DNA of 64,000 nt, taken from positions 5,481 to 69,480 of the forward strand of contig DAOUDJ010000222.1 in the NCBI GenBank assembly GCA_034430795.1, in the 5' to 3' direction. Positions 12,560 to 35,542 of this stretch are shown piece by piece. The notes under the pieces are model-generated. The model was not told the origin of the DNA. It ran no database searches and was given only the letters and a program-made list of their open reading frames with translations. A program made the translations under genes and the position numbers. Each line of letters starts with the position of its first letter. Position 1 is the stretch's first letter. Source of the DNA: Anaerolineales bacterium. Its GTDB lineage: Bacteria; Chloroflexota; Anaerolineae; Anaerolineales; E44-bin32.

Positions 12560-12602
12560 GAGAACCCGGAGACAAAGTTCGTCCCGGGTTCTCCTTTTAT
12601 TT
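12560..12602 (+). terminator. rho-independent terminator of rph
   Basis: 10-bp stem GAGAACCCGG / CCGGGTTCTC (12560-12569 / 12584-12593) followed by 'cttttattt'. Confidence 0.7.
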
Positions 12603-12738
12603 CGGGTCTCCCCCGAATGCAGCGGAACGTCTGCGGGGCCTTTCTGGCATTGGTTATACATCCGAATGAAGGAGTGTGGGGAAGCGAGGGGAGGAGGCGA
12701 TATTTGTCTGCCGAAGTCTCACTCAGTTTGAGGGGCGA

Positions 12739-18105: not shown

Positions 18106-18141
18106 AGAATTTACTCCTTTTCTAAGCGTCCATCCGGTAGG

Positions 18142-19151: not shown

Positions 19152-19925
19152 TTATTGCGTGATCAGCGTCCCATTTGGTGAGCCTAGGAGCACCTCTCGT
19201 AATTGACCTGGTGTCTCGCCAGAAAAGATGAGAACTTCAGTGTCCGGAAGCTTTTTTGAGAATGCCAGCGCATACTTCACTTTCGTTTTCATACCGCCGG
19301 TGACATCCAGCGGTCCATCATCCGCGAAGGCTAATCCGTCAAAGTCAGCCTGGGTGATTGAGGCGAGGATCTCCCCGGAACGATTGTATACACCTGGAGT
19401 AAGACCTGTAAGTAAGATACGGCTGGGTTTTATTGTCTCGGTCAGATAGGAGAAGATAGCTTCAGTCGAAGCGATCGCCGCTCCTCTGGTTTCATCGAAA
19501 ACTACGTCGCCATGAATTACGGGGATCAAACCTTTTGATAACGCATGTTGAATAGGTTGGATTGCGAGGCTTATCAACTCGCCGTCATGTGCGAGCGCCG
19601 AAGCAGAAGGAGGGAAAGAGATGACTGGCAGACCAGCCGCAAGTAGTGAGTCCATAACGAACCTGTGCAGCTTGTTGGCCGCTTTCCAGACAGCGACGAC
19701 CCCCTTCCAATCCTCAATTGTCGATGCGCCATGATGGGTGCCGAATTTCGCGGCAGCATGGTGGCCAAAAGACCCCGAACCGTGCCCGAGAAGAATCGTT
19801 AATTCTGGGTTCTCCCGGCGAACATCCTGAATCTCTGTGGCCAACCTATCGATTACCTCCAGGCGAGCGGATTCAATCTGTGATTTCTCTGTGATCAGTG
19901 AGCCGCCAAGCTTGAGGAAAATCAT
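19152..19925 (-). CDS. ipk: isopentenyl phosphate kinase (amino-acid-kinase fold)
   Basis: 'MIFLKLGGSLITEK', 'LGHGSGSFGH', 'VIHGDVV' and 'DVTGGM' match archaeal/Chloroflexi IPK signatures. 4-nt overlap with mvk. Confidence 0.85.
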   Translation of the reverse strand: MIFLKLGGSLITEKSQIESARLEVIDRLATEIQDVRRENPELTILLGHGSGSFGHHAAAKFGTHHGASTIEDWKGVVAVWKAANKLHRFVMDSLLAAGLPVISFPPSASALAHDGELISLAIQPIQHALSKGLIPVIHGDVVFDETRGAAIASTEAIFSYLTETIKPSRILLTGLTPGVYNRSGEILASITQADFDGLAFADDGPLDVTGGMKTKVKYALAFSKKLPDTEVLIFSGETPGQLREVLLGSPNGTLITQ

Positions 19926-20857
19926 CTGTCCACCTCTGTTATGAAAACCTGTTTTGCTCCGGCTTTTATCAGAGCGGTTTCAACTTCTTGTGCGGTATCT
20001 AACTCAACAAGTGCGAGCATGATACCGCCCATTCCTGCGCCTGAAAGTTTGGCACCTAAAGCGCCTGATCCGCGGGCTGCTCGAATCAGACGTTGAAGCT
20101 CCCATGAACTAAGACCCATATCTTCCAACAGCGTCTGGTTTCGATTCATCAAAGCCCCCAAAGACACGAGTGAGCCTGTCTCTAGCATTGTACGGGCTTC
20201 TTTCACGATCTCGCCAATTTCTTCGAACCATCCCCCGTATGTCCCTGGGTCTTTTTCCCAGCGCTCACGCAGCAGATTCACCGGTATGGTGGTTCTCATC
20301 GACACGCCTGTGTCCCCAACAATCAGATTTAAAGGAGTGGATATCGAGATAAACTCTGGTTTGTGTTCGCGAATGAAGTAGACCGGTTTTTCGTAGGCGA
20401 CTACGGTATTGTCGATCCCGGAGGGTGTGCCGTGATGGAGGCACTCGACTGCGTAAGCGATCTTGGAGATCGTTTCAACTTCGAGTGGTTTCCCCAAGTG
20501 GTCGCTCAGAGCACGGATGACGGCGACCGAGACGGCCGCGCTTGATCCGAGCCCCGAGGCAATGGGGAGCTGCGAGCGGATGGTTAGATGGACATCTACA
20601 GGCGCTTTCACGCCGAGTTCATCAAGGGTGATGTTTACCGCGGATGCCAATGGGTTTTCCCCATCCGCTTCGTGGAGCCAATAGGACTGGCCGATGTCGG
20701 GTGCGTCGATGAGCACGCCCGTAGTTCCCGGATCGAGGCTTTCAACTTGAACTGTCACACGGATATGGGAAAGAGGGACAGCTATTGCGGGCTGGCCGTA
20801 AACGACCGCATGTTCCCCGAAGAGGATAGCTTTGCCAGAAGCGCTGGCTAGGGTCAT
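19922..20857 (-). CDS. mvk: mevalonate kinase
   Basis: GHMP kinase motifs 'GKAILFGEHAVVYG' and 'PIASGLGSSAAVSVA', plus C-terminal 'KLSGAGMGG'. 4-nt overlaps on both sides. Confidence 0.9.
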   Translation of the reverse strand: MTLASASGKAILFGEHAVVYGQPAIAVPLSHIRVTVQVESLDPGTTGVLIDAPDIGQSYWLHEADGENPLASAVNITLDELGVKAPVDVHLTIRSQLPIASGLGSSAAVSVAVIRALSDHLGKPLEVETISKIAYAVECLHHGTPSGIDNTVVAYEKPVYFIREHKPEFISISTPLNLIVGDTGVSMRTTIPVNLLRERWEKDPGTYGGWFEEIGEIVKEARTMLETGSLVSLGALMNRNQTLLEDMGLSSWELQRLIRAARGSGALGAKLSGAGMGGIMLALVELDTAQEVETALIKAGAKQVFITEVDR

Positions 20858-21774
20858 GGGGAGAAGTATAAGATGGCGACGGCGGTTAAACCCCAGAGTG
20901 CAACCGTGGCCATGAGCGGTTTATCGGATAGAAGGAGTTCTTCCGGAGCGCCGCCTTCGGCTTTAACATGGATAAGAAATAGATAGCGGAAGATTCCATA
21001 AATTACAAAGGGGATCGTCAACATCATCAAGTGATTACCCGGGAGATTCTCTGCGGAGAAGGTATAGAGGGCGTAGGCGAGAATCGTTGTGCTGGAGACA
21101 ATCGAAAGCAAGTGGTCGATGAACGAGAGAGTGTAGCCATCGAGAACGCGTCGATGAGAATTCGCATCGTCCGCTAATAGAACCATCTCTGCGCGCCTCT
21201 TTCCCAAACCCATGAAAAGTGAGATTAGGGTAACGCATACATACATCCAGGGGGAGAAACGCTGAACCGTGATGAGTACTACTCCTGCCGCTACACGGAG
21301 GACAAAGCCGGTGGCGATGACGAGGACGTCGATGATAGGGATGTGTTTGAGGTAGAACGAATATAACAAGTTTAAAACCATATAGGTAAGAAGGATGAGA
21401 CCGAACTTGATTTCGAGCCAGAATCCGAGACCGAGGGCTGTGATCGAGAAGAGAACCGCGGCAATTATAGCGACGTTCTTTGAGAGTTTTCCTGAGGCGA
21501 GCGGGCGCGTTCGCTTCACAGGGTGCTGCCGGTCTTGTTCGATGTCAACGAGGTCGTTGATGAGATAGACTGCACTTGCTCCTAAACAGAATATAAAGAA
21601 CCCTCCAAGGGTTCTAAGGAAGGAAGGCAGGTGTAACAATTTCTGGTCGAAAACAAGTGCTGTGAAGAGAATACCATTCTTGACCCATTGCTTGGGGCGC
21701 ATGGCCTTCAGTAGGTGTCTCATTATGGGCCGCATGATAGCAGGAACATCTGGGAGGGGCAAGAGAGCTATCAC
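20854..21774 (-). CDS. UbiA-family polyprenyl-phosphate phosphoribosyltransferase (DPPR synthase, Rv3806c-like)
   Basis: 'LLKAMRPKQWVKNG', 'AVYLINDLVDIEQDRQHPVKRTRPLASG' and 'GKRRAEM' parallel M. tuberculosis Rv3806c ('LVKAMRPRQWVKN', 'NDVRDVEADREHPTKRFRPIAAG', 'GKRYAEL'). The start may be an internal Met. Confidence 0.8.
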   Translation of the reverse strand: MIALLPLPDVPAIMRPIMRHLLKAMRPKQWVKNGILFTALVFDQKLLHLPSFLRTLGGFFIFCLGASAVYLINDLVDIEQDRQHPVKRTRPLASGKLSKNVAIIAAVLFSITALGLGFWLEIKFGLILLTYMVLNLLYSFYLKHIPIIDVLVIATGFVLRVAAGVVLITVQRFSPWMYVCVTLISLFMGLGKRRAEMVLLADDANSHRRVLDGYTLSFIDHLLSIVSSTTILAYALYTFSAENLPGNHLMMLTIPFVIYGIFRYLFLIHVKAEGGAPEELLLSDKPLMATVALWGLTAVAILYFSP

Positions 21775-21838
21775 TCAGATGATGACAAGGTCGTTCTGAA
21801 GATGGGTTGAACGTACAGATTGAAGTACAATCGAGATT

Positions 21839-22615
21839 ATGTCCAGTAAGAAACGCATCGATCTCCTTCTTGTTGACCGAGGGCTCGCCGAAAGCCGTTC
21901 TGTAGCACAAAAATTGATCATGGCCGGGCTCGTTCGAGTGGAAGGACAGTTGATCCATAAAGCATCTCAAAAAGCAGAACCGGGGATGTTGATCGAGGTA
22001 GCCTCCGGACCACGATTTGTCTCTCGCGGTGGAGAGAAGTTGAAAGCTGCAGTGGAGACGTTTCCGGTGACTGTGGATGGTCGAATCTGTGCCGATGTCG
22101 GTGCATCAACGGGAGGGTTCACCGATTGTCTCCTGCAACACGGGGCTGCGCGTGTGTATACGATCGATGTGGGGAAGGGGCTGCTCCATTGGAAATTGCG
22201 AAACGACGCTCGTGTTGTGGTGATGGAGAAGACGAATGCTCGCTACTTGAAAACCCTTCCTGAGCATGTCCATCTTGTAACGATGGATGTCTCCTTTATC
22301 TCACTCCGGAAACTGCTGCCGGTCATCGTTGGATGGTTGGAGCCGGGGGGAGATGTGATCGCTTTAATCAAACCGCAGTTCGAAGCTGGCCCCGCTCGCG
22401 TTGGCAGGGGTGGGGTTGTTCGTGATCCCGCTGTACATCGCGACGTGACCCATCGAATCCTAGAATTTTCCGTCGAACACTCACTCGCGCCTCAGGGACT
22501 CATTCAATCCCCTTTACGTGGCCCGAAAGGCAATGTTGAGTTCCTGGCATGGCTGCGAAAAGACGCGCAAGCACGGAGCACAGATGACTTGCTTGAGATC
22601 GTATTCCCATCTTGA
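21839..22615 (+). CDS. tlyA: TlyA-family rRNA 2'-O-methyltransferase (S4 domain + FtsJ fold)
   Basis: 'RIDLLLVDRGLAESRSVAQKLIMAG', 'DVGASTGGFTDCLLQHGA' and 'DVSFISL' motifs. Confidence 0.9.
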   Translation: MSSKKRIDLLLVDRGLAESRSVAQKLIMAGLVRVEGQLIHKASQKAEPGMLIEVASGPRFVSRGGEKLKAAVETFPVTVDGRICADVGASTGGFTDCLLQHGAARVYTIDVGKGLLHWKLRNDARVVVMEKTNARYLKTLPEHVHLVTMDVSFISLRKLLPVIVGWLEPGGDVIALIKPQFEAGPARVGRGGVVRDPAVHRDVTHRILEFSVEHSLAPQGLIQSPLRGPKGNVEFLAWLRKDAQARSTDDLLEIVFPS

Positions 22616-22761
22616 AATGGAACCTGTGAATAATTACGAGGTTGATGTTCTCATACCTTTTGTAAAGGGAGGATCTCTGAAGATGGACGAAATGGTTCAA
22701 GCGCGGTTTTTGCGTACGAATGACGGTGCTGGAATTGTCAACAGGGTATAATCCCCGCCTG

Positions 22762-23772
22762 ATGCCAATGTCACGAAACTCGCGTAGATTTCTTGTCCTC
22801 CTTTTGGGAATACTCATCAGCGCTGCAGCGCTGTACCTAGTCCTACGTTGGGCTGGCTGGGAAGCCCTTCTCGCCGCGTTAAAACGGATGGACGTGCGCT
22901 TCTTGCTTCTTGCGGTTGTTGTTTATCTGATTTCTATGCTAGCGCGTGCGGCAGCATGGCAAACAATACTGAATCATAAGTATGGTTTCGGTCGAGTACT
23001 GGCCGCGTTGAATGAAGGCTATCTTCTAAATAACGTTCTCCCGTGGCGCCTCGGTGAGGTGGGACGCGCTGTTCTGCTCGGTCGACGATCGGGAGGATCG
23101 ATCTTATCGGTTCTTTCCTCGATCCTTGTTGAACGATTATTTGATCTCGCGCTTGCCTTAGGTTTGCTCTTCGCACTGTTGCCTCTTGTTGCCGGAATTC
23201 CGAACGTACCACGCACCGGATCGACGATCGCCATTGTCCTGATCTTTATCATTGCTGTTCTATGGCTTCTTGTCCGCAAGCCTGTATGGATAGAAAGCGT
23301 CCTCTGCCGGCTTCCCGGGGGTGGAAAGCGGTGGATGCCCGCCTGGGAACGCGTCCGGCAAGGCTTGCAGGCGCTTCAAGATCCTCGCGTGCTTTTTACG
23401 AGTCTTGGTTGGATGGTGCTCACGTGGGCTCTCGCCGGAGTAGAGTATTGGTTGGTCTTAAAAGCCCTTATCCCCGAAGCGGAATGGACCTGGGCGTTCT
23501 TCATGTTAACGATAACATTGCTCGGTGGAGCCATCCCTTCATCGCCGGGTTATTTTGGCGTGTTTGAGGCAGCAGGAGTATTGGCGCTCGCCGCGTTTGA
23601 TGTTCCGAAAGCGGAAGCCCTGGCCGTCTCGCTTACCATTCATGGAATGGTTTTTTCAATAGGATCTCTCTTCGGCCTTATAGCTTTGCTCAATGAAGGT
23701 GAGACGATCTCAGGGTTGTACCAGGATATCCGCAGGTGGCTCTCCTCTGGCTCGAATCAGCAAGCGGGTTAA
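22762..23772 (+). CDS. UPF0104 / LPG_synthase_TM (MprF flippase-domain-like) membrane protein
   Basis: 'LNEGYLLNNVLPWRLGEVGRAVLL' and an 8-TM layout match the lysyl-PG synthase TM-region family. Start is ATG 22762 or 22768 (the ORF is open from 22720). Confidence 0.78.
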   Translation: MPMSRNSRRFLVLLLGILISAAALYLVLRWAGWEALLAALKRMDVRFLLLAVVVYLISMLARAAAWQTILNHKYGFGRVLAALNEGYLLNNVLPWRLGEVGRAVLLGRRSGGSILSVLSSILVERLFDLALALGLLFALLPLVAGIPNVPRTGSTIAIVLIFIIAVLWLLVRKPVWIESVLCRLPGGGKRWMPAWERVRQGLQALQDPRVLFTSLGWMVLTWALAGVEYWLVLKALIPEAEWTWAFFMLTITLLGGAIPSSPGYFGVFEAAGVLALAAFDVPKAEALAVSLTIHGMVFSIGSLFGLIALLNEGETISGLYQDIRRWLSSGSNQQAG

Positions 23773-24940: not shown

Positions 24941-25723
24941 ATGACGAAAGATTATTTTTGGCTGCATCTGCGTGATCTACCCTACTTTCGGGCACTTCTG
25001 CGTTCGATTGAAGCCGGCTACTACAAAGACCTGGATCTCCCATCACCGACTCTCGATGTGGGTTGTGGGGATGGACATTTCACAACGATCGCCTTCGATC
25101 GCCCAATTGAGATCGGCGTCGACCCTGATCTACCGATCATGCGCGAAGCTAAATCACGCCATGCGTATGATCTCCTTCTGCAAGCAGATGGGGCACGCAT
25201 GCCGCTCCCGGACCATTCAATCGCTTCGGCTTTCAGCAATTCGGTGCTCGAGCACATACCGCATCTTGACGCGGTTCTGCGAGATGTGGGTCGGGTGTTA
25301 AAGTCTGGCGCACCATTTGTGTTCACGGTGCCCAACCCGGGCTATCGTACGCAGCTGAGCCTCCCACGCAAGCTCTCTAAGGCAGGACTTTCGGCTCTGG
25401 GGAAGGCGTATGAAAGTTGGTTCATGCGCATGTCGCGAACGATAAACCTCGACGATGAGGGGGGTTGGGAACGGCGATTATCGGCAGCCGGTTTCACGAT
25501 CGAGCGAACCTTCCGCTACTTTCCACCGTCCTCCCTCCATGTTCTGGAGTGGGGGCATTACTTAGGTGGACCCTGCTTGCTCCCGCATAAACTATTCGGC
25601 AAGTGGATTCTCGCCCCTTATCGTTGGAATCTCGGTTTGACGGATAGGCTGGTGCGGCGATACTATGATACGTCGCCGACAGAAGACGGAACCTATAGCT
25701 TTTATCTGGTGCGTAAACGATGA
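24941..25723 (+). CDS. class I SAM-dependent methyltransferase
   Basis: Motif I 'LDVGCGDGHFT' and post-I/II 'ASAFSNSVLEHIP' (Methyltransf_11-like). Confidence 0.85.
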   Translation: MTKDYFWLHLRDLPYFRALLRSIEAGYYKDLDLPSPTLDVGCGDGHFTTIAFDRPIEIGVDPDLPIMREAKSRHAYDLLLQADGARMPLPDHSIASAFSNSVLEHIPHLDAVLRDVGRVLKSGAPFVFTVPNPGYRTQLSLPRKLSKAGLSALGKAYESWFMRMSRTINLDDEGGWERRLSAAGFTIERTFRYFPPSSLHVLEWGHYLGGPCLLPHKLFGKWILAPYRWNLGLTDRLVRRYYDTSPTEDGTYSFYLVRKR

Positions 25724-27933
25724 CCTCACCTGAGTCTGAACCTCTCATAAAACCCGAATCCGATCCGCCAGACGCACAGGAACCAAGCGTCCTGGATTGG
25801 TTGAAATCGCTGGTTCGTGGGCATCCGATCCCCATTCCCGAAGGACCCGTAGAGAGCGCAATCGATGATCTGCCAATGCAGGCGGTGGACGAGGAGCCTC
25901 AGCAAGAGGCGATCCTATCAACCTTCCGTTTTGAGGCATCTCAATTTCGGTTGCCGGTGGCGTTACTGCTAGCGCTTGCAGCGCAATTTGGTCTGGAACG
26001 TCGAGAAGGTTCGATTTGGATCAGTATTGTTCTGTACATCCTGGCTGGTGTGGTTATCGCTTGGGGGACTTGGTCAAAGGATTTCTTCTATAAAACACCT
26101 CCTACCTCAGACGAGAGGGTCAGTCCCGTCACCTATCGTCCGGCATTATTGTCTGCAGCACTTATTCTTTCTCTGCTTACATTCATCAGCTCTGGAAATA
26201 ACCTCTTCGATTTTCCGACCGTGGTCTTCTGGACCGCTTCTATCATCACCATCCTGTTGGCATTCTGGGATGGTGAATTCCCTCTGGTGAGCTGGTGGAG
26301 AAGGTTAAAGAGTTGGTTAGGTGACCCCAATCTGCATTTATCGCTTTCTGGCTGGGATCTTCTGGTTCTTGCCGGTTTCAGTCTTTCGGTCTACTTCCGG
26401 TTCTATCTCCTCGATTCGGTTCCACCGGAGATGGTCAGCGATCACGCTGAGAAATTGCTGGATGTCGTCGATGTGCTCAATGGAAAATACTCGATCTTTT
26501 TCCCGAGGAACACCGGGCGTGAGGCTATGCAGTTTTACATGGCTGCGGCGACGTACAAATGGTTAGGCACGGAGATCTCCTATCTCACCTTGAAAATCGG
26601 CACAGCCCTGGCCGGGGTTCTTACCTTACCTTTCATTTATCTCCTCGGTAAAGAAGTTGGGGGGAAGCGAGTTGGTCTCGCGGCTATGATTCTGGCGGGG
26701 ATCGCTTATTGGCCGAATGTGATAAGCCGGGTGGGGCTGCGGTTTCCGCTTTACCCCTTGTTCGTCGCTCCGGCTTTTTATTACCTGGCCAGAGGAATCC
26801 GTACTCGCAATCGGAATGATTTCCTGCTTTGTGGGTTGGTTGTTGGTATGGGACTTCATGGGTATAGCCCGGCGCGAGTAATCCCTATCGCCATCGCCGT
26901 GGGTATTAGCCTGTATCTTCTGCACAAGGGTTCGCAAGAACAGCGCCGGGTGATGATCACGCTGCTCGTAATCACAGGTCTCGTCGCTCTGATTGTGTTT
27001 ATGCCCCTGGTGCGAATTGCGGTAGATCGCCCGGATGAGGTGATCTACAGGATGACCACGCGCTTTGGGAGCGCCGAGCGGGATTTGCCAGGACCTGCAT
27101 TACAGATTTTCTTTTCAAATGTCTGGAACGGCTTGAAGATGTTCACCTGGGATAATGGCGAGGTATGGGTGAACTCCATCCCGCACCGTCCAGCGTTGGA
27201 TTGGGTCACTGGTGCTCTGTTCTCTCTTGGAGTGGTCATTGCATTGACCCGCTTTGTACGCTACCGGCGCTGGATCGATTTGTTCATTCTCGTCTCGATC
27301 CCCATCCTCCAGCTTCCATCAACGCTATCGCTTGCGTTTCCGGCCGAGAACCCAGCTACCAATCGGGCTGCGGGGGCGATCGTGCCTGCTTTCATCCTTG
27401 CTGGCTTGGCGTTTGCGGCAATTCCGGATTGGATCGAAACCCATTGGAAAGGACGCCAAACGGCCGGCTTCAGCCTAGTGTTCACCGGGTTGCTTTTATT
27501 AATAGCGGGTCGATTGAATTACCACCTCGTTTTTAAGGAATATCAAGATCTATATCGCCGGTCCGCATGGAATACGTCTGAGGCAGGCGCCGTGATTCGG
27601 AACTTTGCTGAATCGATCGGCTCCTATGAAACCGCGCATGTTGTCGCCTACCCTCATTGGGTGGATACACGACTTGTTGGGATAAACGCCGGTCAACCCA
27701 CCAAGGACTATGCCATTTCCGAGGAGGGCTTAGCGGATACGATCTTCGAAACCCGACCACAGCTCTTCCTGCTCCACCCGGATGATGTAGAGTCCTTACA
27801 GAAACTCAAAGAGCTCTACCCATTTGCACGGGTTACAGAGTACCCAAATATCATCGAGGGGAAGAATTTTATAATTTTTTCTGTTCCTTTCGCACCTGAA
27901 ACTCTACCAGAAGCGATCCGGGAATCCGAGTGA
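25720..27933 (+). CDS. GT-C-like (GT39/PMT_2-like) polytopic membrane glycosyltransferase, 737 aa
   Basis: ATGA overlap with the methyltransferase gene. Acidic cytoplasmic N-tail, then many TMs. 'FFPRNTGREAMQFYM...ALAGVLTLPFIYLLGKEVGGKRVGLAAMILAGIAYW' resembles ArnT/PMT_2-type GT-C cores. Confidence 0.7.
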   Translation: MTSPESEPLIKPESDPPDAQEPSVLDWLKSLVRGHPIPIPEGPVESAIDDLPMQAVDEEPQQEAILSTFRFEASQFRLPVALLLALAAQFGLERREGSIWISIVLYILAGVVIAWGTWSKDFFYKTPPTSDERVSPVTYRPALLSAALILSLLTFISSGNNLFDFPTVVFWTASIITILLAFWDGEFPLVSWWRRLKSWLGDPNLHLSLSGWDLLVLAGFSLSVYFRFYLLDSVPPEMVSDHAEKLLDVVDVLNGKYSIFFPRNTGREAMQFYMAAATYKWLGTEISYLTLKIGTALAGVLTLPFIYLLGKEVGGKRVGLAAMILAGIAYWPNVISRVGLRFPLYPLFVAPAFYYLARGIRTRNRNDFLLCGLVVGMGLHGYSPARVIPIAIAVGISLYLLHKGSQEQRRVMITLLVITGLVALIVFMPLVRIAVDRPDEVIYRMTTRFGSAERDLPGPALQIFFSNVWNGLKMFTWDNGEVWVNSIPHRPALDWVTGALFSLGVVIALTRFVRYRRWIDLFILVSIPILQLPSTLSLAFPAENPATNRAAGAIVPAFILAGLAFAAIPDWIETHWKGRQTAGFSLVFTGLLLLIAGRLNYHLVFKEYQDLYRRSAWNTSEAGAVIRNFAESIGSYETAHVVAYPHWVDTRLVGINAGQPTKDYAISEEGLADTIFETRPQLFLLHPDDVESLQKLKELYPFARVTEYPNIIEGKNFIIFSVPFAPETLPEAIRESE

Positions 27934-30900
27934 TTATGGCTGAAGTTGAAGCACCCATCGATCAACAACATGAGCCGCCTGAAAAAGAAAGATCCAGGGT
28001 TCTTTCGGATCTTACTGTTGGGATTCTTCTTATCGCGGTTCTCGGTCTGGCTGCGTACCTGCGTTTCACCGGCTTGAATTGGGATTCTCACACCCATCTC
28101 CACCCGGATGAACGCTTTCTTACGATGGTTGAGACCTCGATCCAACTTCCGCAGTCGATCGGGGAATATTTCAGCACCGAGACATCCCCTCTCAATCCGC
28201 ATAACGTTGGGCATGGCTTCTTCGTCTATGGTTCACTCCCGATCTTCCTCGTCCGCTATCTCGCTGAATGGACCGGGATGTCTGGCTATGACCAGGTACA
28301 TCTTCTAGGGAGGGCTGTTTCGGGAATATCCGATCTTGTATCGATCCTTCTGATATACCTGATCGGGGAAAGACTCTTCAATCGTCGGGTCGGGATTCTG
28401 GCAGCGCTGTTTACAGCCCTTTCGGTTTTGTTGATTCAACATGCGCATTTCTTCGTCGTCGACCCACTCGCCAATGTCTTTATCCTCGCCGGACTATATT
28501 TCTCGGTTCGAGTTATCGGCCAGGGGAAGCTCAGTGACTATCTTCTTTTCGGGGTCATGCTGGGGCTGGCGGTGGCCTCCAAAATCAGCGCTGCCCCTCT
28601 GGCGGTTGCTGTAGCGCTTGCTGGACTCACGAATATCCTTAGCGCCCCCTCGGATCAAAGGTCTGCTGTTTTCTCACGCACACTCACTTTCTTACTCGGC
28701 GCAGCGCTCCTGTCACTTCTTGTCTTCCGTATTTTCCAACCTTACGCTTTTGAAGGGCCGGGCTTCCTTGACGTGAGGTTCAACCCGAAGTGGCTGGCGA
28801 ATATGGCGGAGGTCCGAAGCCAGCAGGCAGGGAACACCGATGCTCCTTATGCGCTTCAGTGGGCTAATCGCGCGCCGGTCTTTTTCTCATTGAAAAATAT
28901 GATTTTATGGGGAATGGGCATACCGCTCGCGATCCTGGGCTGGATCGGTTTGGGCTGGGCTCTTGTCGAGATGATCCGCGGACGGTGGGAGCGGTATTTG
29001 ATCCCGGTGGTCTGGACAGCCGGCATGTTCATCTGGCAGTCGATCAATTTCACCAAGGCGATGCGCTACCAGCTGCCTGTTTATCCGACACTGGCATTAC
29101 TGGCAGCCTGGGTACTCTGGCATGTATGGGAGAGTGTCCCGCAGCTCAACGCCCAATGGCGAAAGGCAGCCCGAATCGGTGTGTTGTTGGTTGGATCAAT
29201 CACCATCCTGGGGACAGCTTTGTGGGCATATGCCTTCCACTCGATATACTCGGAGCCACTCACCCGGGTATCCGCATCGCGATGGATTTACAGGAATGTT
29301 CCGGCTGTCGTTAATCTGGTTGTAGAAGCAGACGGGGAAACGTTTTACGAGACAATCCCCATGCCCATACCCTATGATCTAAGCTCCGGTGACACCTATA
29401 CAACGGAGATCTCCACAGACGTCGCCGGAGTTATCAGCAGCGTTCTTCTACCCTATGTCTCGACGAATGATGGTAAGGACGGCATCCTGGGTCTTTCTGT
29501 AACGCTTGCAGATGAGCCAAACGCCGGATCCATATATGCGCGCGGGGAATTCCGCAGCGATGTACTCGCGGGCGAAGAAGCTCGGGTTGAAATCCAACTC
29601 GATCGATCCTTTAATATCGACCCAGATACTCGTCTGTTCCTGATTCTCGAGAATATCGGTGAGCCATCCCTGCATATGCGCCCATCTCTCCTGGTGCATG
29701 AAACTACCTGGGATGATGGCCTGCCGTGGGGGGTGGATGGCCGAGGGCTTGGCGGCAGATATGAGGTGCACAATCTTGAACTTTATTGGCACGATAACCA
29801 GGACGATGATGATAACGGAATCCCCGATAAGTTAGAGAGGATCGTGCAGTATTTGGAGCAGGGGGATTATCTTATGATCTCCTCTAACCGCCAGTATGGA
29901 ACGATCCCCCGCGTTCCAATCCGCTACCCACTTACTGCTGCCTATTACCGTGAGCTTTTCGGCTGCCCTGATGGAATGGATGTTCCCACGTGTGGTGCGA
30001 CCGCAGAGGTGGGATTGTACGCGGGCCGCTTAGGGTATTCACTCGTTGAGGTTTTTGAAAGTCACCCCTCAATTGGGGCGCTGAAAATCAACGATCAGTT
30101 CGCGGAAGAAGCCTTTACAGTCTATGACCATCCGAAGGTGTTGATCTTTAAGCGGGATGCAGATTTCAGCGCGGAAAAGGTCTTTGACTTTCTTTCCCAG
30201 GTCGACGTGAGCGGCGTCGTCCATGTGCTGCCAAAGGATGCCGGCGATACAGGGCAGGACTTACTGCTCTCGGCGGATAAATGGCAGAAACAGCAGGAGG
30301 AGGGCACCTGGTCAGAGATCTTCAACACAGAGAGCATCGTTAACCGCTCGGGATTGTTGAGCGCCATCCTCTGGTGGGTGGCGTTGGGTATTCTGGGTCT
30401 TCTGGTTTATCCCATAACGAGGGTCGTCTTCCGCAGCTTCCATGATGGCGGTTATGCGCTCTCGCGGTTGATTGGGCTGCTGCTATTCTCTTGGGGCGCT
30501 TGGATCTTCGGGAGCCTTGGGGTCACAGTCAGCCGCTTGACGCTCAGCATTGTGCTGCTGCTGCTCGCGGGTATTTCCTTCACCCTAGCATTGCGTGACC
30601 GAGAAGAACTTTCTACATTCTTCCGGACGCAATGGCGAGATATCCTTTGGGTAGAGGTTTTTGCGCTCAGTTTTTTCCTCGTGGATCTCGGGATTCGATA
30701 CGGGAACCCTGATTTATGGCATCCAGCAAAGGGTGGGGAGAAGCCGATGGACTTCTCCTATCTAAACGCCGTAATTAAGAGCTCAACCTTCCCTCCTTAT
30801 GATCCCTGGTTCGCTGGGGGGTATATCAACTACTACTACTACGGTTTCGTCCTCGTCGGAATGCCGGTGAAATTGCTGGGCATCGTCCCGGCGACAGCCT

Positions 30901-32897
30901 ACAATCTCATTATCCCAACGCTCTTCTCGATCCTGGCATTGTGCGCGTACAGCATGGGCTACCATCTTGTACGTTCGATTTCTCATAATATGTCTCTTCG
31001 CGTTAGGGCCAATCCCAAATTGGCGGGTCTCATCGCCGCGCTCCTGCTTGTGGTTTTTGGAAATCTGGGCACGGCCAGGATGTTCTATGATGGTTTCAAA
31101 CAGGTTGGCACCCCGGCAGGGGTTGAAGAGGGGAGCTTCATTGTTGGGGCGGGTCAAGCAGCCAAGGGATTTGTAAACTATCTGACGTACAAGTCTCCGC
31201 TTCCCTACCCGATGGACCAATGGTATTGGAACCCGAGCCGGATGATTACCCCCGGTGAGGGTGAGCCAGGGCCAATCACAGAATTCCCCTTCTTCACTTT
31301 CCTGTACGCTGATCTGCATGCTCACATGATCAGCCGCTCACTCACAATCCTTAGCCTGGCGTGGGGTTTATCGTGGATTCTTTCCGTTTCCCAGCGTCGC
31401 CGTCGAGGGAAAATCGACATCGCCCTGGCGTTGTTTGTGGGCGGTTTAACGCTTGGCGCGCTGCGACCTATTAACACATGGGATTTTCCCGTGTATTGGG
31501 TATTAGGAGTACTTGCAGTCCTCTACGCTGTGTGGTGGCGCGATCGAAAATTTGATCTACCACAAATTGCAGAAGCAGGTCTATATGCCATCCTGCTTTT
31601 AGCATTTTCGCAGTTCCTTTATCAACCGTACCATCAGTGGTACGGGCAGGGATATTTGTCCGCAGAGATCTGGAAGGGGTCTCTGACGTCCATGATTGAT
31701 TATCTGACGGTGCATGGAGTCTTCCTCTTCCTGATTGCAGCCTGGATGGTATGGGAAACTCGCGAGTGGATGGCCCAAACTCCGATTTCAGAACTGAACC
31801 GGCTGCGGCCGATTGCGACGTGGATTGGATCTGCGGCTTTCCTCATTGTGGCAGTTACCGCCTGGCTTGCGGGTATTGGATATCAGATTGCACTGATCGT
31901 CATCCCTCTCGGCGCTTGGGCGATGATACTGCTGCTGCGACCAGATCTTGCCTTAGGCAAGCGGATCGTGCTTTTCATCGTAGGAACTGGGCTGGTTCTT
32001 ACGTTTGTCGTGGAGGTCGTGGTACTCAAGGGGGATATCGGTCGCATGAACACGGTCTTCAAATTCTACCTCCAGGTGTGGGAGCTCTTCAGCCTGGCTG
32101 CAGCTGCAGCTCTCGCATGGACGTACACCTCACTTCCGAAATGGGATCGCGTATGGCGGTGGGGCTGGCTGACGGCAACGGTTTTGCTTTTATTCTCTGC
32201 CGCGTTGTATCCCCTCACGGCATCTATATCGAAAGTCCGGGATCGGATGACGGTAACCGCGCCGCGGACGCTCGACGGCATGCTCTATATGGATTACGCC
32301 GTCCGCTTCGAATTGGGCGAGAAACTATCCTTGGGAGAGGATTATCAAGCGATTCGTTGGATGCAGGAAAATGTCGAGGGTTCACCGGTTATCGTTGAAG
32401 CGAATATTCCTGAGTATCGTTGGGGTTCGCGTTATTCGATCTACACCGGACTCCCGGGTGTCCTGGGATGGCGCTGGCATCAAACCCAGCAGCGCGTCGC
32501 CGCGGAAAACACTGAGACGGACGAACGGCTATTCCAAATAACAAATTTCTACCTCACACGAACGATCGCAGAAGCGAAAGAATTCCTCGCTGAATATAAT
32601 GTTAAGTATGTCGTCGTCGGCGAGCTGGAACGCGCTTATTACGCCGAGGTCTATCCGTGCTGGCCGGATGCGAGTGTACCGGGCATATCCTGTGATCTGC
32701 GCGGTTGGCCGCTGGGCATGCCGACATCGTTCCCGATCTCGCCTGACGAATGTGAACTGGAACACCCCGAGGATGAAACCTCGAGCCTGCGCTGCCCGAC
32801 ACATGCTCTGGATAAATTCCCCGCCATGGAATCTGAAGGAAGTCTCCTCGCCGTCTTCCAGGATGGGAAAACGGTGATCTATGAGGTTGTAAAGTGA
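27930..32897 (+). CDS. 1655-aa fusion: N-terminal GT-C (TIGR03663/PMT_2-like, 'HPDERF') module + soluble domain + C-terminal DUF2298 'Chlor_Arch_YYY' module
   Basis: GTGA overlap upstream. 'HPDERF' lies in the first loop (28101-28118). 'EKPMDFSYLNAVIKSSTFPPYDPWFAGGYINYYYYG' (30738-30845). The C-terminal half is paralogous to the next gene. Confidence 0.8.
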   Translation: MIMAEVEAPIDQQHEPPEKERSRVLSDLTVGILLIAVLGLAAYLRFTGLNWDSHTHLHPDERFLTMVETSIQLPQSIGEYFSTETSPLNPHNVGHGFFVYGSLPIFLVRYLAEWTGMSGYDQVHLLGRAVSGISDLVSILLIYLIGERLFNRRVGILAALFTALSVLLIQHAHFFVVDPLANVFILAGLYFSVRVIGQGKLSDYLLFGVMLGLAVASKISAAPLAVAVALAGLTNILSAPSDQRSAVFSRTLTFLLGAALLSLLVFRIFQPYAFEGPGFLDVRFNPKWLANMAEVRSQQAGNTDAPYALQWANRAPVFFSLKNMILWGMGIPLAILGWIGLGWALVEMIRGRWERYLIPVVWTAGMFIWQSINFTKAMRYQLPVYPTLALLAAWVLWHVWESVPQLNAQWRKAARIGVLLVGSITILGTALWAYAFHSIYSEPLTRVSASRWIYRNVPAVVNLVVEADGETFYETIPMPIPYDLSSGDTYTTEISTDVAGVISSVLLPYVSTNDGKDGILGLSVTLADEPNAGSIYARGEFRSDVLAGEEARVEIQLDRSFNIDPDTRLFLILENIGEPSLHMRPSLLVHETTWDDGLPWGVDGRGLGGRYEVHNLELYWHDNQDDDDNGIPDKLERIVQYLEQGDYLMISSNRQYGTIPRVPIRYPLTAAYYRELFGCPDGMDVPTCGATAEVGLYAGRLGYSLVEVFESHPSIGALKINDQFAEEAFTVYDHPKVLIFKRDADFSAEKVFDFLSQVDVSGVVHVLPKDAGDTGQDLLLSADKWQKQQEEGTWSEIFNTESIVNRSGLLSAILWWVALGILGLLVYPITRVVFRSFHDGGYALSRLIGLLLFSWGAWIFGSLGVTVSRLTLSIVLLLLAGISFTLALRDREELSTFFRTQWRDILWVEVFALSFFLVDLGIRYGNPDLWHPAKGGEKPMDFSYLNAVIKSSTFPPYDPWFAGGYINYYYYGFVLVGMPVKLLGIVPATAYNLIIPTLFSILALCAYSMGYHLVRSISHNMSLRVRANPKLAGLIAALLLVVFGNLGTARMFYDGFKQVGTPAGVEEGSFIVGAGQAAKGFVNYLTYKSPLPYPMDQWYWNPSRMITPGEGEPGPITEFPFFTFLYADLHAHMISRSLTILSLAWGLSWILSVSQRRRRGKIDIALALFVGGLTLGALRPINTWDFPVYWVLGVLAVLYAVWWRDRKFDLPQIAEAGLYAILLLAFSQFLYQPYHQWYGQGYLSAEIWKGSLTSMIDYLTVHGVFLFLIAAWMVWETREWMAQTPISELNRLRPIATWIGSAAFLIVAVTAWLAGIGYQIALIVIPLGAWAMILLLRPDLALGKRIVLFIVGTGLVLTFVVEVVVLKGDIGRMNTVFKFYLQVWELFSLAAAAALAWTYTSLPKWDRVWRWGWLTATVLLLFSAALYPLTASISKVRDRMTVTAPRTLDGMLYMDYAVRFELGEKLSLGEDYQAIRWMQENVEGSPVIVEANIPEYRWGSRYSIYTGLPGVLGWRWHQTQQRVAAENTETDERLFQITNFYLTRTIAEAKEFLAEYNVKYVVVGELERAYYAEVYPCWPDASVPGISCDLRGWPLGMPTSFPISPDECELEHPEDETSSLRCPTHALDKFPAMESEGSLLAVFQDGKTVIYEVVK

Positions 32898-35542
32898 TCC
32901 AAGACGTCTTCACCTGGTGGTTGATAAGCACGTTGGTAGGCGCTATGGCGCTGCCAATTGCATGGCGGATCTTCGGACGGCTCGAGGACCGCGGTTATGG
33001 TTTCGCCAGGGCTCTAGGGCTGCTCTTGACCGGATATATTTTCTGGATGGGAGCCACGCTGCGGCTTTTCCAACCGAGCCTTGGTGGAGCGGTGATGGCG
33101 CTTCTTGCGCTCTTGGTGTTGAGCGTCTGGATTGGTCGTAGCACGTGGCGCGATGTTCTTGATTGGCTCAAAGAACACCGTTCCACAGTTCTAATCATGG
33201 AGATCCTTTTCCTGCTCGCGTTCTTGGCTTGGGCGTTTGTGCGGGCGAACAACCCGGAAATCACCGGAACAGAAAAACCGATGGAGCTCGCGTTCCTAAA
33301 TTCGATTCTGCGCTCAGACAGCTTCCCACCTCACGATCCATGGCTCTCGGGCTATGCGATCTCCTATTATTACTTCGGCTATATACTTCTGGCCTTGCTC
33401 ACTCGGCTCACGGGCGTTGCCTCTGGGGTCGCCTTCAATCTTGGGAATAGTCTCTGGTTTGCGCTGGTCGCCTTGGGCACATACTCTCTCGCATATAATT
33501 TCCTCTCCCGACGGACGCCCGGACGTGTTAAACGATTTTCACCGCTTCTTGCGCCGCTCTTCGTCTTGATCAGCGGAAATTTAGGAGCCTTCCTCGAGGT
33601 CCTTTATTCAAAATACATCTTCTGGACGACGACCACCACCGGTGTTTTTTTGACGTCGCCGTTCTGGACCTGGATTGGACTTGAGGATCTGGAAAAACCG
33701 CCCTCGCTCTTGCTCGAAGCGAGTTGGATGCCGCAACGATACTTGTGGTGGTGGCGTTCATCACGCGTGATCAGGGATCTCGACCTCAATGGTCTTCCAC
33801 TCGGATTACAGTCGATCGACGAATTCCCGTTCTTCACTTTCCTGCTTGCAGACAATCACCCCCACCTTTTAGCGATGCCCTTCGTACTCATGGTAATCGC
33901 ATTCGCTTTCCAGGTTTTCCTCCAGGGACAGCGGACACCTCTTCGTTTGGGAGAGGTGAAGTGGACTCACAGCCTGCGTAAAAATCTGTTAATTGCCCTG
34001 GGTTTGGTATTGGCGATCGTCGTGGTCGTCCTGGGAATGAAAGCCGGAGCGGCAGATCTGGGGATATCCGCGGCATTCATTTCAATTATTAAAGGTATCG
34101 TGACAAGCGGGATTATATTTGGGGCTATGCTTCTTGTCGGGGCGATCGCAGGCGGCTTGCTCCCATCTTCTCTCAATAAGCTCGAATTCTGGTTCGGAGC
34201 ATGGCTCTTCGGGGCGCTGGCTTTCTTGAATACCTGGGATTTCCCGATTTATTTCATCTTGCTCTTCTGTGTGATGATCTGGAGGAGTCGTACGCTCCCG
34301 CTTACAGTTTGGGTTAAATCGGTGCTCACGACGAGCTTCGCATTCATCGTAGCTGCCATCCTGCTTTATATTCCCTGGTATCCATCGTTCTCATCACAGG
34401 CAGGCGGTATCCTGCCGCACTTGATGCATCCCACTCGTTTTCTCCATTTCTTCATCATGTTCGCGGTCTTGTTCATCCCTTTGACTGTCTGGCTTATCAT
34501 GCGAGTGATGCAGGGGAGAAGGCGATCGGAGGGGAAGTGGCTTTTCGGAATAAGCCTGGGATTCCCGCTCGCACTCTTGATCCTCTCGTGGCTTTTCGCA
34601 GCAATGATTTACCTCGTGGGTGCAAACGTCATCGGAATGGGGGCGATCCTCAGCAGCATGGGGATGGACAGCCTCCGCGATGCCGCTCGAGCGACAATCA
34701 CTATCCGATTAACGCAGTCGTGGACAGCGATCGGCTTGGGCGTGATGATCGCCGCCACCGTTGTGCTCATCAGACGTGTATGGAAAGACTCTCCGAGCGA
34801 TACCAAACCAGGTCCTTTCATTCTTATGATGATCACGATTGGGGCGCTCTTGATACTTGGTCCTGAGTTTTTCTATCTCAAAGACCAATTCGGGCTGCGC
34901 ATGAATACGATTTTTAAATTCTACTTTGCTGCCTGGGTCTTTTGGGGCCTTGCCGCAGCATACGTGATGGATGTGATCTGGTCCAAACGGAGTGCGAAGA
35001 TGATCCCCGTGCAGATACTCACGGTTCTCCCATTGCTTGCCGGGCTCATGTATCCTGCCCTATCCGTGTGGACGAAAACAAACGGCTTAAACCCGGTCCA
35101 TGGCCGAACGTTGAATGGAGCTTTGCACCCTGCCTACGCGAGCGAAGCGGATCGTGACGCGATCCAATGGATGAGCGATAATTTGGATGTCGGGGTTGTT
35201 GCGGAAGCCGTCGGTGGTAGTTATTCGTACTTTGCGAGAGTATCTGTGCATACGGGATTCCCGACCATTATCGGTTGGCCTGGTCATGAAAGCCAGTGGC
35301 GCGGCGGATACCAGTACCACGGAACGCGGGAAGAGGATGTCAGGACACTGTATAAGTCGCCAGATTGGGAACAAACTCAAGAGATACTGAAAACCTATAA
35401 TGTGAAGTATGTATACATTGGAGAACTTGAGCGAATGGCATACCCACCCATCTTTGATGGAAAATTTGATGCATTCATGGAACTGGTTTACCAAAACGAC
35501 AGGGTTAAAATCTACGCTAGAAGAGCAGGTGACTCCTCTTGA
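32894..35542 (+). CDS. DUF2298 / 'Chlor_Arch_YYY' domain membrane protein, 882 aa
   Basis: GTGA overlap upstream. 'TEKPMELAFLNSILRSDSFPPHDPWLSGYAISYYYFG' (33272-33379). The C-terminal soluble domain 'GFPTIIGWPGHESQWRG...YNVKYVYIGELER' parallels that of the 1655-aa protein. Confidence 0.8.
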   Translation: MIQDVFTWWLISTLVGAMALPIAWRIFGRLEDRGYGFARALGLLLTGYIFWMGATLRLFQPSLGGAVMALLALLVLSVWIGRSTWRDVLDWLKEHRSTVLIMEILFLLAFLAWAFVRANNPEITGTEKPMELAFLNSILRSDSFPPHDPWLSGYAISYYYFGYILLALLTRLTGVASGVAFNLGNSLWFALVALGTYSLAYNFLSRRTPGRVKRFSPLLAPLFVLISGNLGAFLEVLYSKYIFWTTTTTGVFLTSPFWTWIGLEDLEKPPSLLLEASWMPQRYLWWWRSSRVIRDLDLNGLPLGLQSIDEFPFFTFLLADNHPHLLAMPFVLMVIAFAFQVFLQGQRTPLRLGEVKWTHSLRKNLLIALGLVLAIVVVVLGMKAGAADLGISAAFISIIKGIVTSGIIFGAMLLVGAIAGGLLPSSLNKLEFWFGAWLFGALAFLNTWDFPIYFILLFCVMIWRSRTLPLTVWVKSVLTTSFAFIVAAILLYIPWYPSFSSQAGGILPHLMHPTRFLHFFIMFAVLFIPLTVWLIMRVMQGRRRSEGKWLFGISLGFPLALLILSWLFAAMIYLVGANVIGMGAILSSMGMDSLRDAARATITIRLTQSWTAIGLGVMIAATVVLIRRVWKDSPSDTKPGPFILMMITIGALLILGPEFFYLKDQFGLRMNTIFKFYFAAWVFWGLAAAYVMDVIWSKRSAKMIPVQILTVLPLLAGLMYPALSVWTKTNGLNPVHGRTLNGALHPAYASEADRDAIQWMSDNLDVGVVAEAVGGSYSYFARVSVHTGFPTIIGWPGHESQWRGGYQYHGTREEDVRTLYKSPDWEQTQEILKTYNVKYVYIGELERMAYPPIFDGKFDAFMELVYQNDRVKIYARRAGDSS

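Follow-up and report, generated by a model that had tools for sequence, protein, structure and literature searches.

Why should a gene of the UbiA superfamily overlap two genes of the mevalonate pathway, next to an operon for GT-C-type membrane proteins? The question is raised by a locus in the 64,000-nt stretch of Anaerolineales DNA analysed here (the window). Three ORFs follow one another on its minus strand (ORF list of the window; Table 1). A first-pass annotation had described them as overlapping by 4 nt at both junctions, with tlyA lying divergently 64 nt away; the coordinates of the junctions were borne out, and the distance to tlyA holds for the GTG start of the UbiA gene. Both junctions (20854-20857 and 19922-19925) read ATGA, the stop of each gene overlapping the start of the next. 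These overlaps are kept in relatives, in 49/69 loci for UbiA and mevalonate kinase (MVK) and in 41/58 loci for MVK and isopentenyl phosphate kinase (IPK). A Shine-Dalgarno-like GAGGTGG lies upstream of the IPK start, and no obvious motif of this kind was seen upstream of the MVK start. The true start of the UbiA gene is uncertain: the ORF begins with GTG and has internal ATG alternatives at residues 14 and 18. From an internal ATG the protein would have 289-293 aa and the gap to tlyA would be about 100-115 nt. This gap is presumed to hold promoters in both directions. Promoter- and terminator-like matches near it were no commoner than in shuffled sequence, and no promoter or terminator is claimed. 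The divergent tlyA/UbiA pair occurred in nearly all Anaerolineae loci with upstream sequence, including those lacking MVK and IPK; tlyA is a conserved neighbour of UbiA with no evident functional link to it. The UbiA-MVK-IPK triplet itself is one conserved operon, whose genes we infer to be co-transcribed.

Table 1. Features of the locus, in window coordinates, with strand and the models or structures matched
Feature	Position	Strand	Matches
Probable polyprenyl-phosphate 5-phosphoribosyltransferase, UbiA superfamily, Rv3806c/PPPRS family, 306 aa	20854..21774	-	NF008977, NF008978, PDB 8J8J
Mevalonate kinase (GHMP kinase), 311 aa	19922..20857	-	TIGR00549, PDB mevalonate kinases
Isopentenyl phosphate kinase (amino-acid-kinase fold), 257 aa	19152..19925	-	NF040647, PDB isopentenyl phosphate kinases
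Divergent intergenic region, 64 nt, UbiA (GTG start) to tlyA	21775..21838	.	
TlyA-family rRNA 2'-O-methyltransferase	21839-22615	+	TIGR00478 at 236 bits
Flippase-like membrane protein (LPG_synthase_TM / TIGR00374)	22720..23772	+	PF03706 167 bits, TIGR00374 72.7 bits
GT-C-type membrane proteins: PMT_2 (737 aa), PMT_2+DUF2298 (1655 aa), DUF2298 (882 aa)	25720..35542	+	PF13231, PF10060

Our answer, which we hold with moderate confidence, is that a conserved operon for a PRPP-dependent ribose-lipid synthase and the kinases of the IPK branch would provide lipid-linked ribofuranose for a GT-C envelope glycan. It builds on directly observed gene identities, overlaps, active-site residue conservation, synteny and presence/absence patterns.

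The UbiA homologue, a member of the UbiA superfamily by PF01040, exceeded the cut-offs of NF008977 (267.1 bits, cut-off 234) and NF008978 (233.9 bits, cut-off 207), the non-actinobacterial sub-models of the Rv3806c family, and scored 180.7 bits against the third sub-model, NF008976, under its cut-off of 474. In the PDB it matched Rv3806c (8J8J; E=6e-44, residues 18-302 vs 14-299, 32% identity), which was the only match even at E<=10. The best of the classical prenyltransferase models (quinone, haem, chlorophyll and archaeal-lipid enzymes; cut-offs 180-494 bits) gave 52.2 bits vs a cut-off of 269. The DGGGP synthase models gave 41.9 and 31.1 bits, haem O synthase 28.9 and UbiA 28.5. The homologue groups with the DPPR synthases, as had been proposed from the sequence (267 bits vs at most 52 for the other prenyltransferase models); this classification against MenA, UbiA and DGGGP synthases rests on family-model scores and the PDB search, not on a formal tree.

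The active site points the same way. The roles of the Rv3806c residues contacting Mg, pyrophosphate and the 5-phosphate of PRPP have been assigned (PMC10994848). Every residue of the Mg/pyrophosphate site (N73, D77, R22, K87, R90, Y138 and K143 in Rv3806c) is identical in the UbiA homologue, as are the phosphoribose contacts K28 and Y70 (K32 and Y70 here). The corresponding residues of the homologue (R26, K32, Y70, N73, D77, K87, R90, Y138 and K143) do not vary among 79 Anaerolineae homologues. The other two of the four phosphoribose contacts are conservative changes, not identities: Q135 is N in the window protein (N 60, Q 10, other 9 in the homologue column) and Y157 is F, as in most homologues and in some mycobacteria (PMC10994848). 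The phosphoribose-binding residues are reported not to be conserved in ordinary UbiA prenyltransferases (PMC10994848). ORF15 of Citrobacter youngae, for which polyprenyl phosphoribose synthase activity has been demonstrated, shares 31% identity with Rv3806c (PMC11127046). By these sequence features, the gene very probably encodes a polyprenyl-phosphate 5-phosphoribosyltransferase, which would place ribose phosphate onto a lipid carrier.

A quinone prenyltransferase or an archaeal-type lipid synthase was excluded by the model scores and the active-site residues. More broadly, an ordinary prenyltransferase (quinone, haem, chlorophyll or archaeal-type ether lipid) might adjoin MVK and IPK as a consumer of prenyl diphosphate. 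Superfamily membership and the linkage of the UbiA gene to isoprenoid-supply genes in two classes agree with such a role. However, the prenyltransferase models stayed far below their cut-offs, no prenyltransferase structure was matched in the PDB search, and the protein keeps the Rv3806c-specific contacts to the 5-phosphate and the ribose. Moreover, 112 sampled genomes have the gene but lack IPK, and the haem O synthase of this genome is a separate gene. We regard an ordinary prenyltransferase as exceedingly improbable.

The phosphoribosyltransferase assignment leaves the two kinases to be placed. MVK scored 249.9 bits against TIGR00549 (cut-off 163), and matched mevalonate kinases in the PDB down to E=1.6e-42; the genome yielded no second mevalonate-kinase-like match. 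IPK scored 157.2 bits against NF040647 (cut-off 120) and matched isopentenyl phosphate kinases in the PDB (E=1e-29). As for the UbiA homologue, the PDB matches of both kinases span the full length. HMG-CoA reductase is also present (PF00368, 384 bits), as is an MVD-family decarboxylase (TIGR01240, 257 bits, under the cut-off of the MvaD model). The substrate of this decarboxylase cannot be read from sequence. Dxr and IspH were not found in the genome, which is 87% complete, so that gene absences are provisional; PMK gave no match above the cut-off in this genome, a result with a weak control, as the control genomes all stayed below the cut-off too. The gene set fits the IPK branch proposed in the first-pass annotation, with the reductase and the decarboxylase present and Dxr, IspH and PMK not found. 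This branch of the mevalonate pathway appears to be the sole isoprenoid route of the organism, and so the sole source of its lipid carrier. In Roseiflexus castenholzii, the branch consists of MVK, phosphomevalonate decarboxylase and IPK (Dellas et al. 2013, PMC3857490). The organism studied here resembles it in MVK, MVD-family decarboxylase, IPK and HMG-CoA reductase, with PMK and MEP genes not found, but differs in that the MVK-IPK genes overlap a phosphoribosyltransferase gene. The words 'UbiA' and 'prenyltransferase' are absent from the text of PMC3857490, and its sole 'operon' refers to archaeal genes.

The UbiA gene is near-universal in its order, and the UbiA-MVK-IPK order recurs across Anaerolineales. 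In the phylum sample, IPK lay within 3 kb of UbiA in 28 of the 57 IPK-positive genomes. UbiA and IPK are directly adjacent, without MVK, in 18/18 genomes of one family in another class, and also in one further family. This second class includes a Chloroflexus-like genome, where UbiA-IPK and a PMT_2 GT-C gene are two genes apart. IPK is absent from 112/169 UbiA-positive genomes, and the two genes are unlinked in one family (f14) and in a Herpetosiphon-like family. Adjacency without MVK would suit a metabolic tie, beyond shared regulation, through isoprenyl monophosphates, the substrate type of both enzymes: IPK may serve the lipid pool of the transferase, or the transferase may act on a short isoprenyl phosphate. 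Against such a tie stand the lack of IPK in most UbiA-positive genomes and the two families with unlinked genes, and we give it next to no credence.

If the operon supplies a lipid-linked pentose, where is its user? After tlyA, the plus strand carries, in order, genes for the flippase-like protein, a GT4 protein, a methyltransferase, the PMT_2, PMT_2+DUF2298 and DUF2298 proteins and a 589-aa protein. The 882-aa DUF2298 protein matched TIGR03662 Chlor_Arch_YYY at 486.7 bits, and the 589-aa protein gave a weak, sub-threshold TIGR03663/Agl23-like match. The 882-aa and 1655-aa proteins are members of the DUF2298/TIGR03662 Chlor_Arch_YYY and TIGR03663 (Agl23-like) proteins of Chloroflexota and Archaea. 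The flippase-like (PF03706) and PMT_2/DUF2298 genes of this divergent operon lie 1-14 kb from the synthase gene. The former may encode the flippase for the lipid-linked sugar, and the PMT_2/DUF2298 proteins are candidate users of a polyprenyl-P-pentose donor. The closeness of the GT-C operon to UbiA, pointed out before, holds in this window and in part of the order, with distances within about 10-15 kb in several families, but not elsewhere in the order; outside part of Anaerolineales, the UbiA and DUF2298 genes are hundreds of kilobases apart. Literature searches on DUF2298 returned mentions, none functional; those on TIGR03662, TIGR03663 and Agl23 returned nothing useful, and those combining Chloroflexi with Rv3806c or the name of the enzyme returned nothing.

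We compared gene presence in 251 Chloroflexota genomes. UbiA and DUF2298 were both present in 160, one without the other in 9 and 9, and neither in 73 (phi 0.84); as these genomes are related to one another, the correlation makes the independent events look more numerous than they are. The expected correlation with the DUF2298 genes was found, and the wall marker MraY was not tracked (phi 0.02 between UbiA and MraY). The MraY control excludes the DUF2298 correlation as a stand-in for a peptidoglycan wall. The co-occurrence holds in families with and in families without peptidoglycan genes. The pairing is not obligatory, since DUF2298 is present in archaea without the UbiA enzyme (control genomes) and in 18/251 genomes just one of the two genes is found. 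The link between DUF2298 and the phosphoribosyl-lipid synthase is one of co-occurrence only, and fails in archaea.

These exceptions bear on another explanation: the enzyme makes polyprenyl-phospho-ribose, but the DUF2298/PMT_2 operon is not its user. Proximity and co-occurrence would then reflect shared ancestry or envelope lifestyle, and the true consumer would be another GT-C protein or another pathway. The distance between the genes outside part of Anaerolineales and the archaeal DUF2298 proteins agree with this, as do one family with DUF2298 only (f31) and one with UbiA only (f44). The GT4 and flippase-like pair of the operon could also supply a glycolipid donor of its own. By contrast, the correlation with DUF2298 is far above that with MraY, and it holds with and without peptidoglycan genes. 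A consumer other than the DUF2298/PMT_2 operon is, in our judgement, distinctly improbable.

With the GT-C proteins as the preferred users, the sugar that they would transfer has to be considered. The first-pass annotation had seen neither a DprE1/DprE2-like epimerase nor an Rv3807c-like phosphatase in the window. The window indeed has no PAP2 gene, and the negative result for DprE1, an oxidase that combines FAD_binding_4 with an ALO-type C-terminal domain, extends to the genome. There, neither a DprE1-type protein nor any ALO match turned up at a threshold at which the Corynebacterium control was detected; ALO matched in 0/24 congeneric genomes. The genome has three FAD_binding_4 proteins. 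One, the C49 gene, proved on checking to be alkyl-DHAP-synthase-like; a 950-aa frame is presumably a GlcD/Fe-S-type oxidase, judging by its size, and the third, a frame of 328 aa some 6 kb from mraY, is probably MurB. A phylum-wide search at E<=1e-8 found ALO in 31/251 genomes, only as full-length ALO-type oxidases and not beside UbiA in the complete genomes compared; this search is uninformative on DprE1, the Corynebacterium control being missed at that threshold. The single PAP2 gene of the genome lies on another contig (C150). The synthase has no fused HAD phosphatase domain, and positions 1-190 of the fused model NF006088 had no match in the genome. A NagD-type HAD gene is present in the window (56806-57576), unlinked to the locus.

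As no DprE1 was found, ribofuranose is the most likely sugar. The transferred sugar is probably ribofuranose, or the product of some other epimerisation, and arabinofuranose made by the known mycobacterial route is unlikely. In the second case, the phosphoribosyltransferase would be genuine and its product would be epimerised by an enzyme unrelated to DprE1/DprE2, with xylo- or arabinofuranose being transferred. Arabinose and xylose have been reported from the wall polysaccharide of Chloroflexus. An NAD-dependent epimerase/NmrA-like gene is present at 49937-50887, though unlinked and about 28 kb off. In systems of this kind, the pentose is varied by auxiliary epimerases, which come from more than one family (PMC11127046), and a cytoplasmic NAD-dependent epimerase, like the xylofuranose maker of C. 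youngae O2, would be one option. For Tepidiforma, PMC10284905 gives whole-cell sugar lists only. Epimerisation is nevertheless opposed by the failure to find DprE1, by the lack of an epimerase gene in or beside the UbiA and GT-C operons and by the lack of a conserved epimerase neighbour in 80 related loci (window genes as queries only). We consider an epimerised pentose unlikely.

For ribofuranose, our preferred sugar, the following pathway is proposed. MVK and IPK, as the two kinases of the IPK branch, would supply isoprenoids for the lipid carrier. The UbiA-family enzyme would move ribose 5-phosphate from PRPP onto polyprenyl phosphate to form polyprenyl-phospho-ribofuranose 5-phosphate, and a phosphatase would strip the 5-phosphate. 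The lipid-linked ribofuranose would be flipped outward, where GT-C glycosyltransferases, the PMT_2/DUF2298 proteins of the divergent operon being the best candidates, would use it in building or decorating a glycan of the envelope. The lipid substrate, final sugar, flippase and acceptor of this scheme are our proposals.

The synthase resembles Rv3806c, the Mycobacterium tuberculosis DPPRS (8J8J, 8J8K), in full-length homology, length class, the NDxxDxxxD motif and the pyrophosphate, Mg and 5-phosphate contacts. It differs in matching the non-actinobacterial sub-models, in the DprE1 not found and in the lack of an adjacent Rv3807c-like PAP2 phosphatase; its neighbours are MVK, IPK and tlyA, whereas Rv3806c lies in the arabinan gene cluster. 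The logic would be that of C. youngae O1/O2, with the ORF15 synthase, the ORF14 MATE flippase and the ORF12 GT-C of GT136 (Kelly et al. 2024, PNAS, PMC11127046). In these three-component pentofuranose systems, ribofuranose is transferred directly if no epimerase is present (PMC11127046). Both loci would combine a PRPP-dependent UbiA-family synthase, a flippase and a GT-C, by predicted roles in our case. Unlike the C. youngae synthase, the one described here has no fused HAD phosphatase domain, and its gene shares an operon with the genes of mevalonate-pathway kinases. The candidate flippase belongs to the LPG_synthase_TM family and is not a MATE protein or small transporter, and the GT-C candidates are PMT_2/DUF2298 proteins, not GT136 as far as shown. 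In addition, the synthase gene is a near-universal housekeeping gene of its order, whereas in C. youngae it is a serotype-specific accessory gene. That GT-C enzymes use polyprenyl-P-ribofuranose directly has been put forward before (PMC11127046).

Little is known of the envelope chemistry of Chloroflexota, and no function has been assigned to DUF2298. The near-universal synthase with an intact PRPP site, the specific co-occurrence with DUF2298 and the repeated linkage to kinases of the mevalonate pathway together make a testable hypothesis on donor, transferase family and glycan for a whole phylum. If the hypothesis is wrong, the locus is a conserved operon of the ordinary sort, for which the curated NCBIfam models already give the correct gene names. 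We suggest, tentatively and with more doubt than confidence, that most Chloroflexota, with or without peptidoglycan genes, may use lipid-linked ribofuranose, or another pentofuranose, for an envelope polymer or decoration not described so far, the phosphoribosyltransferase making the donor and the DUF2298/Chlor_Arch_YYY GT-C proteins polymerising or attaching the sugar. If true, the Rv3806c-type enzyme would be a general source of pentofuranose donors beyond Actinobacteria and O-antigen systems, the glycan would correspond in function to mycobacterial arabinan and, in the lineages that use mevalonate, gene overlap would tie donor synthesis to the lower mevalonate pathway.

The source genome is a 4.1-Mb metagenome-assembled genome (87% complete) whose nearest named relatives are Anaerolineales MAGs (protein identity up to 94%); the window lies on its contig C222. 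The predicted phosphoribosyltransferase (UbiA), mevalonate kinase (MVK) and isopentenyl phosphate kinase (IPK) genes are encoded on the minus strand, and the ORF list and the junction sequences agree on the overlap at both junctions reported in the first-pass annotation: each junction is an ATGA in which the stop overlaps the next start. A GAGGTGG motif was found upstream of the IPK start. The UbiA start is ambiguous (21723-21774): translation could begin at the GTG at 21774 or at an ATG at residue 14 or 18; family-model and PDB alignments start at residues 17-19. Consensus scans for promoters and terminators gave matches no commoner than in shuffled sequence, and therefore no signals are claimed. 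After a 146-nt gap, IPK is followed on the same strand by panB and a 422-aa ORF without Pfam or NCBIfam match, an order seen again in many related loci.

Features of the UbiA-MVK-IPK region, the GT-C operon and other genes considered (window positions unless a contig is named)
Feature	Position	Strand	Details
panB and 422-aa ORF	16837-19005	-	downstream of IPK
IPK	19152-19925	-	ORF, 257 aa
MVK	19922-20857	-	ORF, 311 aa
UbiA gene	20854-21774	-	ORF, 306 aa
tlyA	21839-22615	+	divergent; 64 nt from the UbiA GTG start
Flippase-like protein		+	GT-C operon; divergent from UbiA; PF03706
GT4		+	GT-C operon
Methyltransferase		+	GT-C operon
PMT_2 protein		+	GT-C operon
PMT_2+DUF2298 fusion		+	GT-C operon
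DUF2298 protein		+	GT-C operon; TIGR03662, 487 bits
589-aa protein		+	GT-C operon; sub-threshold TIGR03663 match
NAD-dependent epimerase/NmrA-like	49937-50887
Second GT4	55366-56640
NagD-type HAD phosphatase	56806-57576
Alkyl-dihydroxyacetone-phosphate-synthase-like gene	483-2202	-	positions within L093 (G000:C49:1867-4410, contig C49 of the source genome)

The UbiA protein scored 267.1 bits against NF008977 (cut-off 234) and 233.9 bits against NF008978 (cut-off 207), two curated equivalog models of NCBIfam that bear the name decaprenyl-phosphate phosphoribosyltransferase. By contrast, models of quinone, haem, chlorophyll and archaeal-lipid prenyltransferases all gave 52 bits or less (cut-offs 180-494 bits). 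The PDB search retrieved M. tuberculosis Rv3806c (8J8J, E=6e-44, 32% identity, residues 18-302 aligned to 14-299), and no other PDB chain matched even at E<=10. In Rv3806c, N73 and D77 are Mg ligands, pyrophosphate is bound by R22, K87, R90, K143 and Y138, the 5-phosphate is bound by K28, Y70 and Y157, and Q135 contacts the ribose; the contacts to the phosphoribose are not a conserved feature of ordinary UbiA prenyltransferases (PMC10994848). The equivalent positions in the window protein are R26, K32, Y70, N73, D77, K87, R90, Y138 and K143, and it differs from Rv3806c at two contacts, N135 (vs. Q135) and F157 (vs. Y157). In all 79 aligned Anaerolineae homologues, which share 55-94% identity with the window protein, the nine identical residues are unchanged, and the usual residue is N at position 135 and F at position 157; F at position 157 also occurs in some mycobacteria (PMC10994848). 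The identity to Rv3806c is at about the level of ORF15 from Citrobacter youngae (31%), an enzyme whose synthesis of farnesyl-phospho-ribofuranose from PRPP has been demonstrated biochemically (PMC11127046). Model scores and PDB search thus agree that the protein is of the DPPR-synthase type, as first proposed, and not a quinone, chlorophyll or archaeal-lipid enzyme. Judged from sequence, it is very probably a phosphoribosyltransferase, and the assignment of this first step is strong.

The MVK protein scored 249.9 bits against TIGR00549 (cut-off 163) and matched mevalonate kinases of the PDB with E-values as low as 1.6e-42, while the IPK protein scored 157.2 bits against NF040647 (cut-off 120) and matched IPK structures with E=1e-29. 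Contigs other than C222 encode HMG-CoA reductase (384 bits) and an MVD-family decarboxylase (TIGR01240, 257 bits). Neither Dxr nor IspH was found in the 87% complete genome, and no phosphomevalonate kinase scored over the cut-off there, in a search whose control was weak. The mevalonate branch marked by IPK in the first reading is consistent with this, and the gene set fits the route from MVK through phosphomevalonate decarboxylase to IPK described for Chloroflexi (PMC3857490), a paper whose text contains neither 'UbiA' nor 'prenyltransferase'. Consequently, MVK and IPK are housekeeping genes here, supplying the lipid carrier.

Among 41 genomes sampled from the order, 38 had a phosphoribosyltransferase and 37 an IPK over the cut-off; in most, MVK separates the two genes, which share a contig at a spacing of about 1 kb. 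Among 80 related loci drawn from named assemblies, UbiA-MVK-IPK was present in most of those from Anaerolineales, Thermanaerothrix and Levilinea, with the ATGA overlap recurring at the first junction in 49/69 loci and at the second in 41/58. One of these loci (L011, JAIWHF010000015.1) is labelled as a Methanosarcinales archaeon MAG and contains all of the Anaerolineales locus (protein identity about 90%); that assembly has very likely been misbinned. The divergent tlyA/UbiA pair is kept across Anaerolineae orders (L005-L084), more widely than the operon: tlyA remains the neighbour in Caldilineae-, Ardenticatenales- and Amarolinea-type loci without downstream MVK or IPK. No functional reason for this pairing is evident. 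Family f14 of the same order retains tlyA/UbiA-MVK as a unit, with IPK over 2 Mb distant (L090, G081:C1:588000-604000), indicating that in this lineage the operon was split between MVK and IPK.

Across 251 Chloroflexota genomes, all 57 with IPK also had the UbiA gene, within 3 kb of IPK in 28 of them. These 28 include 18/18 genomes of one family in another class, where IPK directly follows UbiA after a gap of about 35 nt. A complete Chloroflexus-like genome of this family (L087, G255:C1:638000-656000, about 8434-13251 of that locus) has UbiA, IPK and a SpoIIM-like membrane protein in a row, adenosine deaminase instead of tlyA upstream, and a 656-aa PMT_2/TMEM260-like GT-C gene two genes past UbiA-IPK and converging on them. 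The UbiA gene occurred without IPK in 112 genomes and is independent of the mevalonate pathway. In genomes that use this pathway, the linkage of UbiA to the kinases seems to reflect coordination with carrier supply.

UbiA and DUF2298 were each present in 169 of the 251 genomes, together in 160, singly in 9 and 9, and neither in 73 (phi 0.84, uncorrected for kinship; related genomes are not independent, so that separate events are much fewer than these counts suggest). The expected correlation with the DUF2298 genes was thus found. This pairing might have been a proxy for a peptidoglycan wall, but the same tabulation of UbiA against MraY gave 111/58/52/30 (phi 0.02); several families (f23, f27, f39 and f42) have UbiA and DUF2298 without MraY, while f30, f36 and f41 have MraY without UbiA or DUF2298. 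The MraY control therefore rules out the proxy. Families f31 and f44 are discordant for UbiA and DUF2298, Haloferax and Methanosarcina have DUF2298 without the UbiA enzyme, and the UbiA and GT-C loci are close (10-40 kb) only in some families of the order. Within the searchable literature, no paper was found on this enzyme together with Chloroflexi, or giving DUF2298 a function. The neighbouring GT-C proteins may be the consumers of the donor, a proposal we regard as evenly balanced.

The known conversion to arabinofuranose requires DprE1. The absence of a dprE1-like gene noted in the window extends to the whole genome (87% complete), where the ALO domain had no match at a threshold sensitive enough to find the control from Corynebacterium; it matched in 0/24 congeneric genomes and was over the cut-off in only 2/41 genomes of the order. 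A stricter phylum-wide ALO search misses the Corynebacterium control and is thus uninformative on DprE1. The genome encodes three FAD_binding_4 proteins. By its size, a 950-aa frame is presumably a GlcD/Fe-S-type oxidase; another frame, of 328 aa and some 6 kb from mraY, is probably MurB. The third, on C49, is alkyl-DHAP-synthase-like (an ether-lipid enzyme family) by PDB and Pfam. It appears split into two overlapping ORFs, FAD_binding_4 lying in one of 264 aa and FAD-oxidase_C in the other, of 358 aa; the split may come from a frameshift or an assembly error, or the gene may be broken. Likewise, no Rv3807c-like phosphatase had been seen in the window, and the sole PAP2 gene of the genome is on another contig; no protein of the genome matched the HAD phosphatase region of the model for the fused synthase. 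The epimerase/NmrA-like, second GT4 and HAD genes of the window, 28-36 kb from UbiA and unlinked to it, are possible candidates for the missing epimerase or 5'-phosphatase. We lean slightly towards ribofuranose as the transferred sugar.

A UbiA-type polyprenyl phosphoribose synthase with a flippase and a GT-C enzyme forms a widespread system, which adds ribofuranose directly, or xylo- or arabinofuranose if an epimerase is present (Kelly et al. 2024, PMC11127046). The idea of a donor for GT-C proteins therefore has experimental precedent. In contrast to those systems, the window synthase has no fused phosphatase domain and its gene overlaps mevalonate-pathway kinase genes, the candidate flippase and the candidate GT-C proteins come from different families that are uncharacterised, and the gene is near-universal in the order rather than an accessory serotype gene. 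The best explanation, which we hold with moderate confidence, is that the operon would couple carrier-lipid supply by MVK and IPK to synthesis by the UbiA enzyme of a polyprenyl-phospho-ribofuranose donor, which would then serve the GT-C enzymes.
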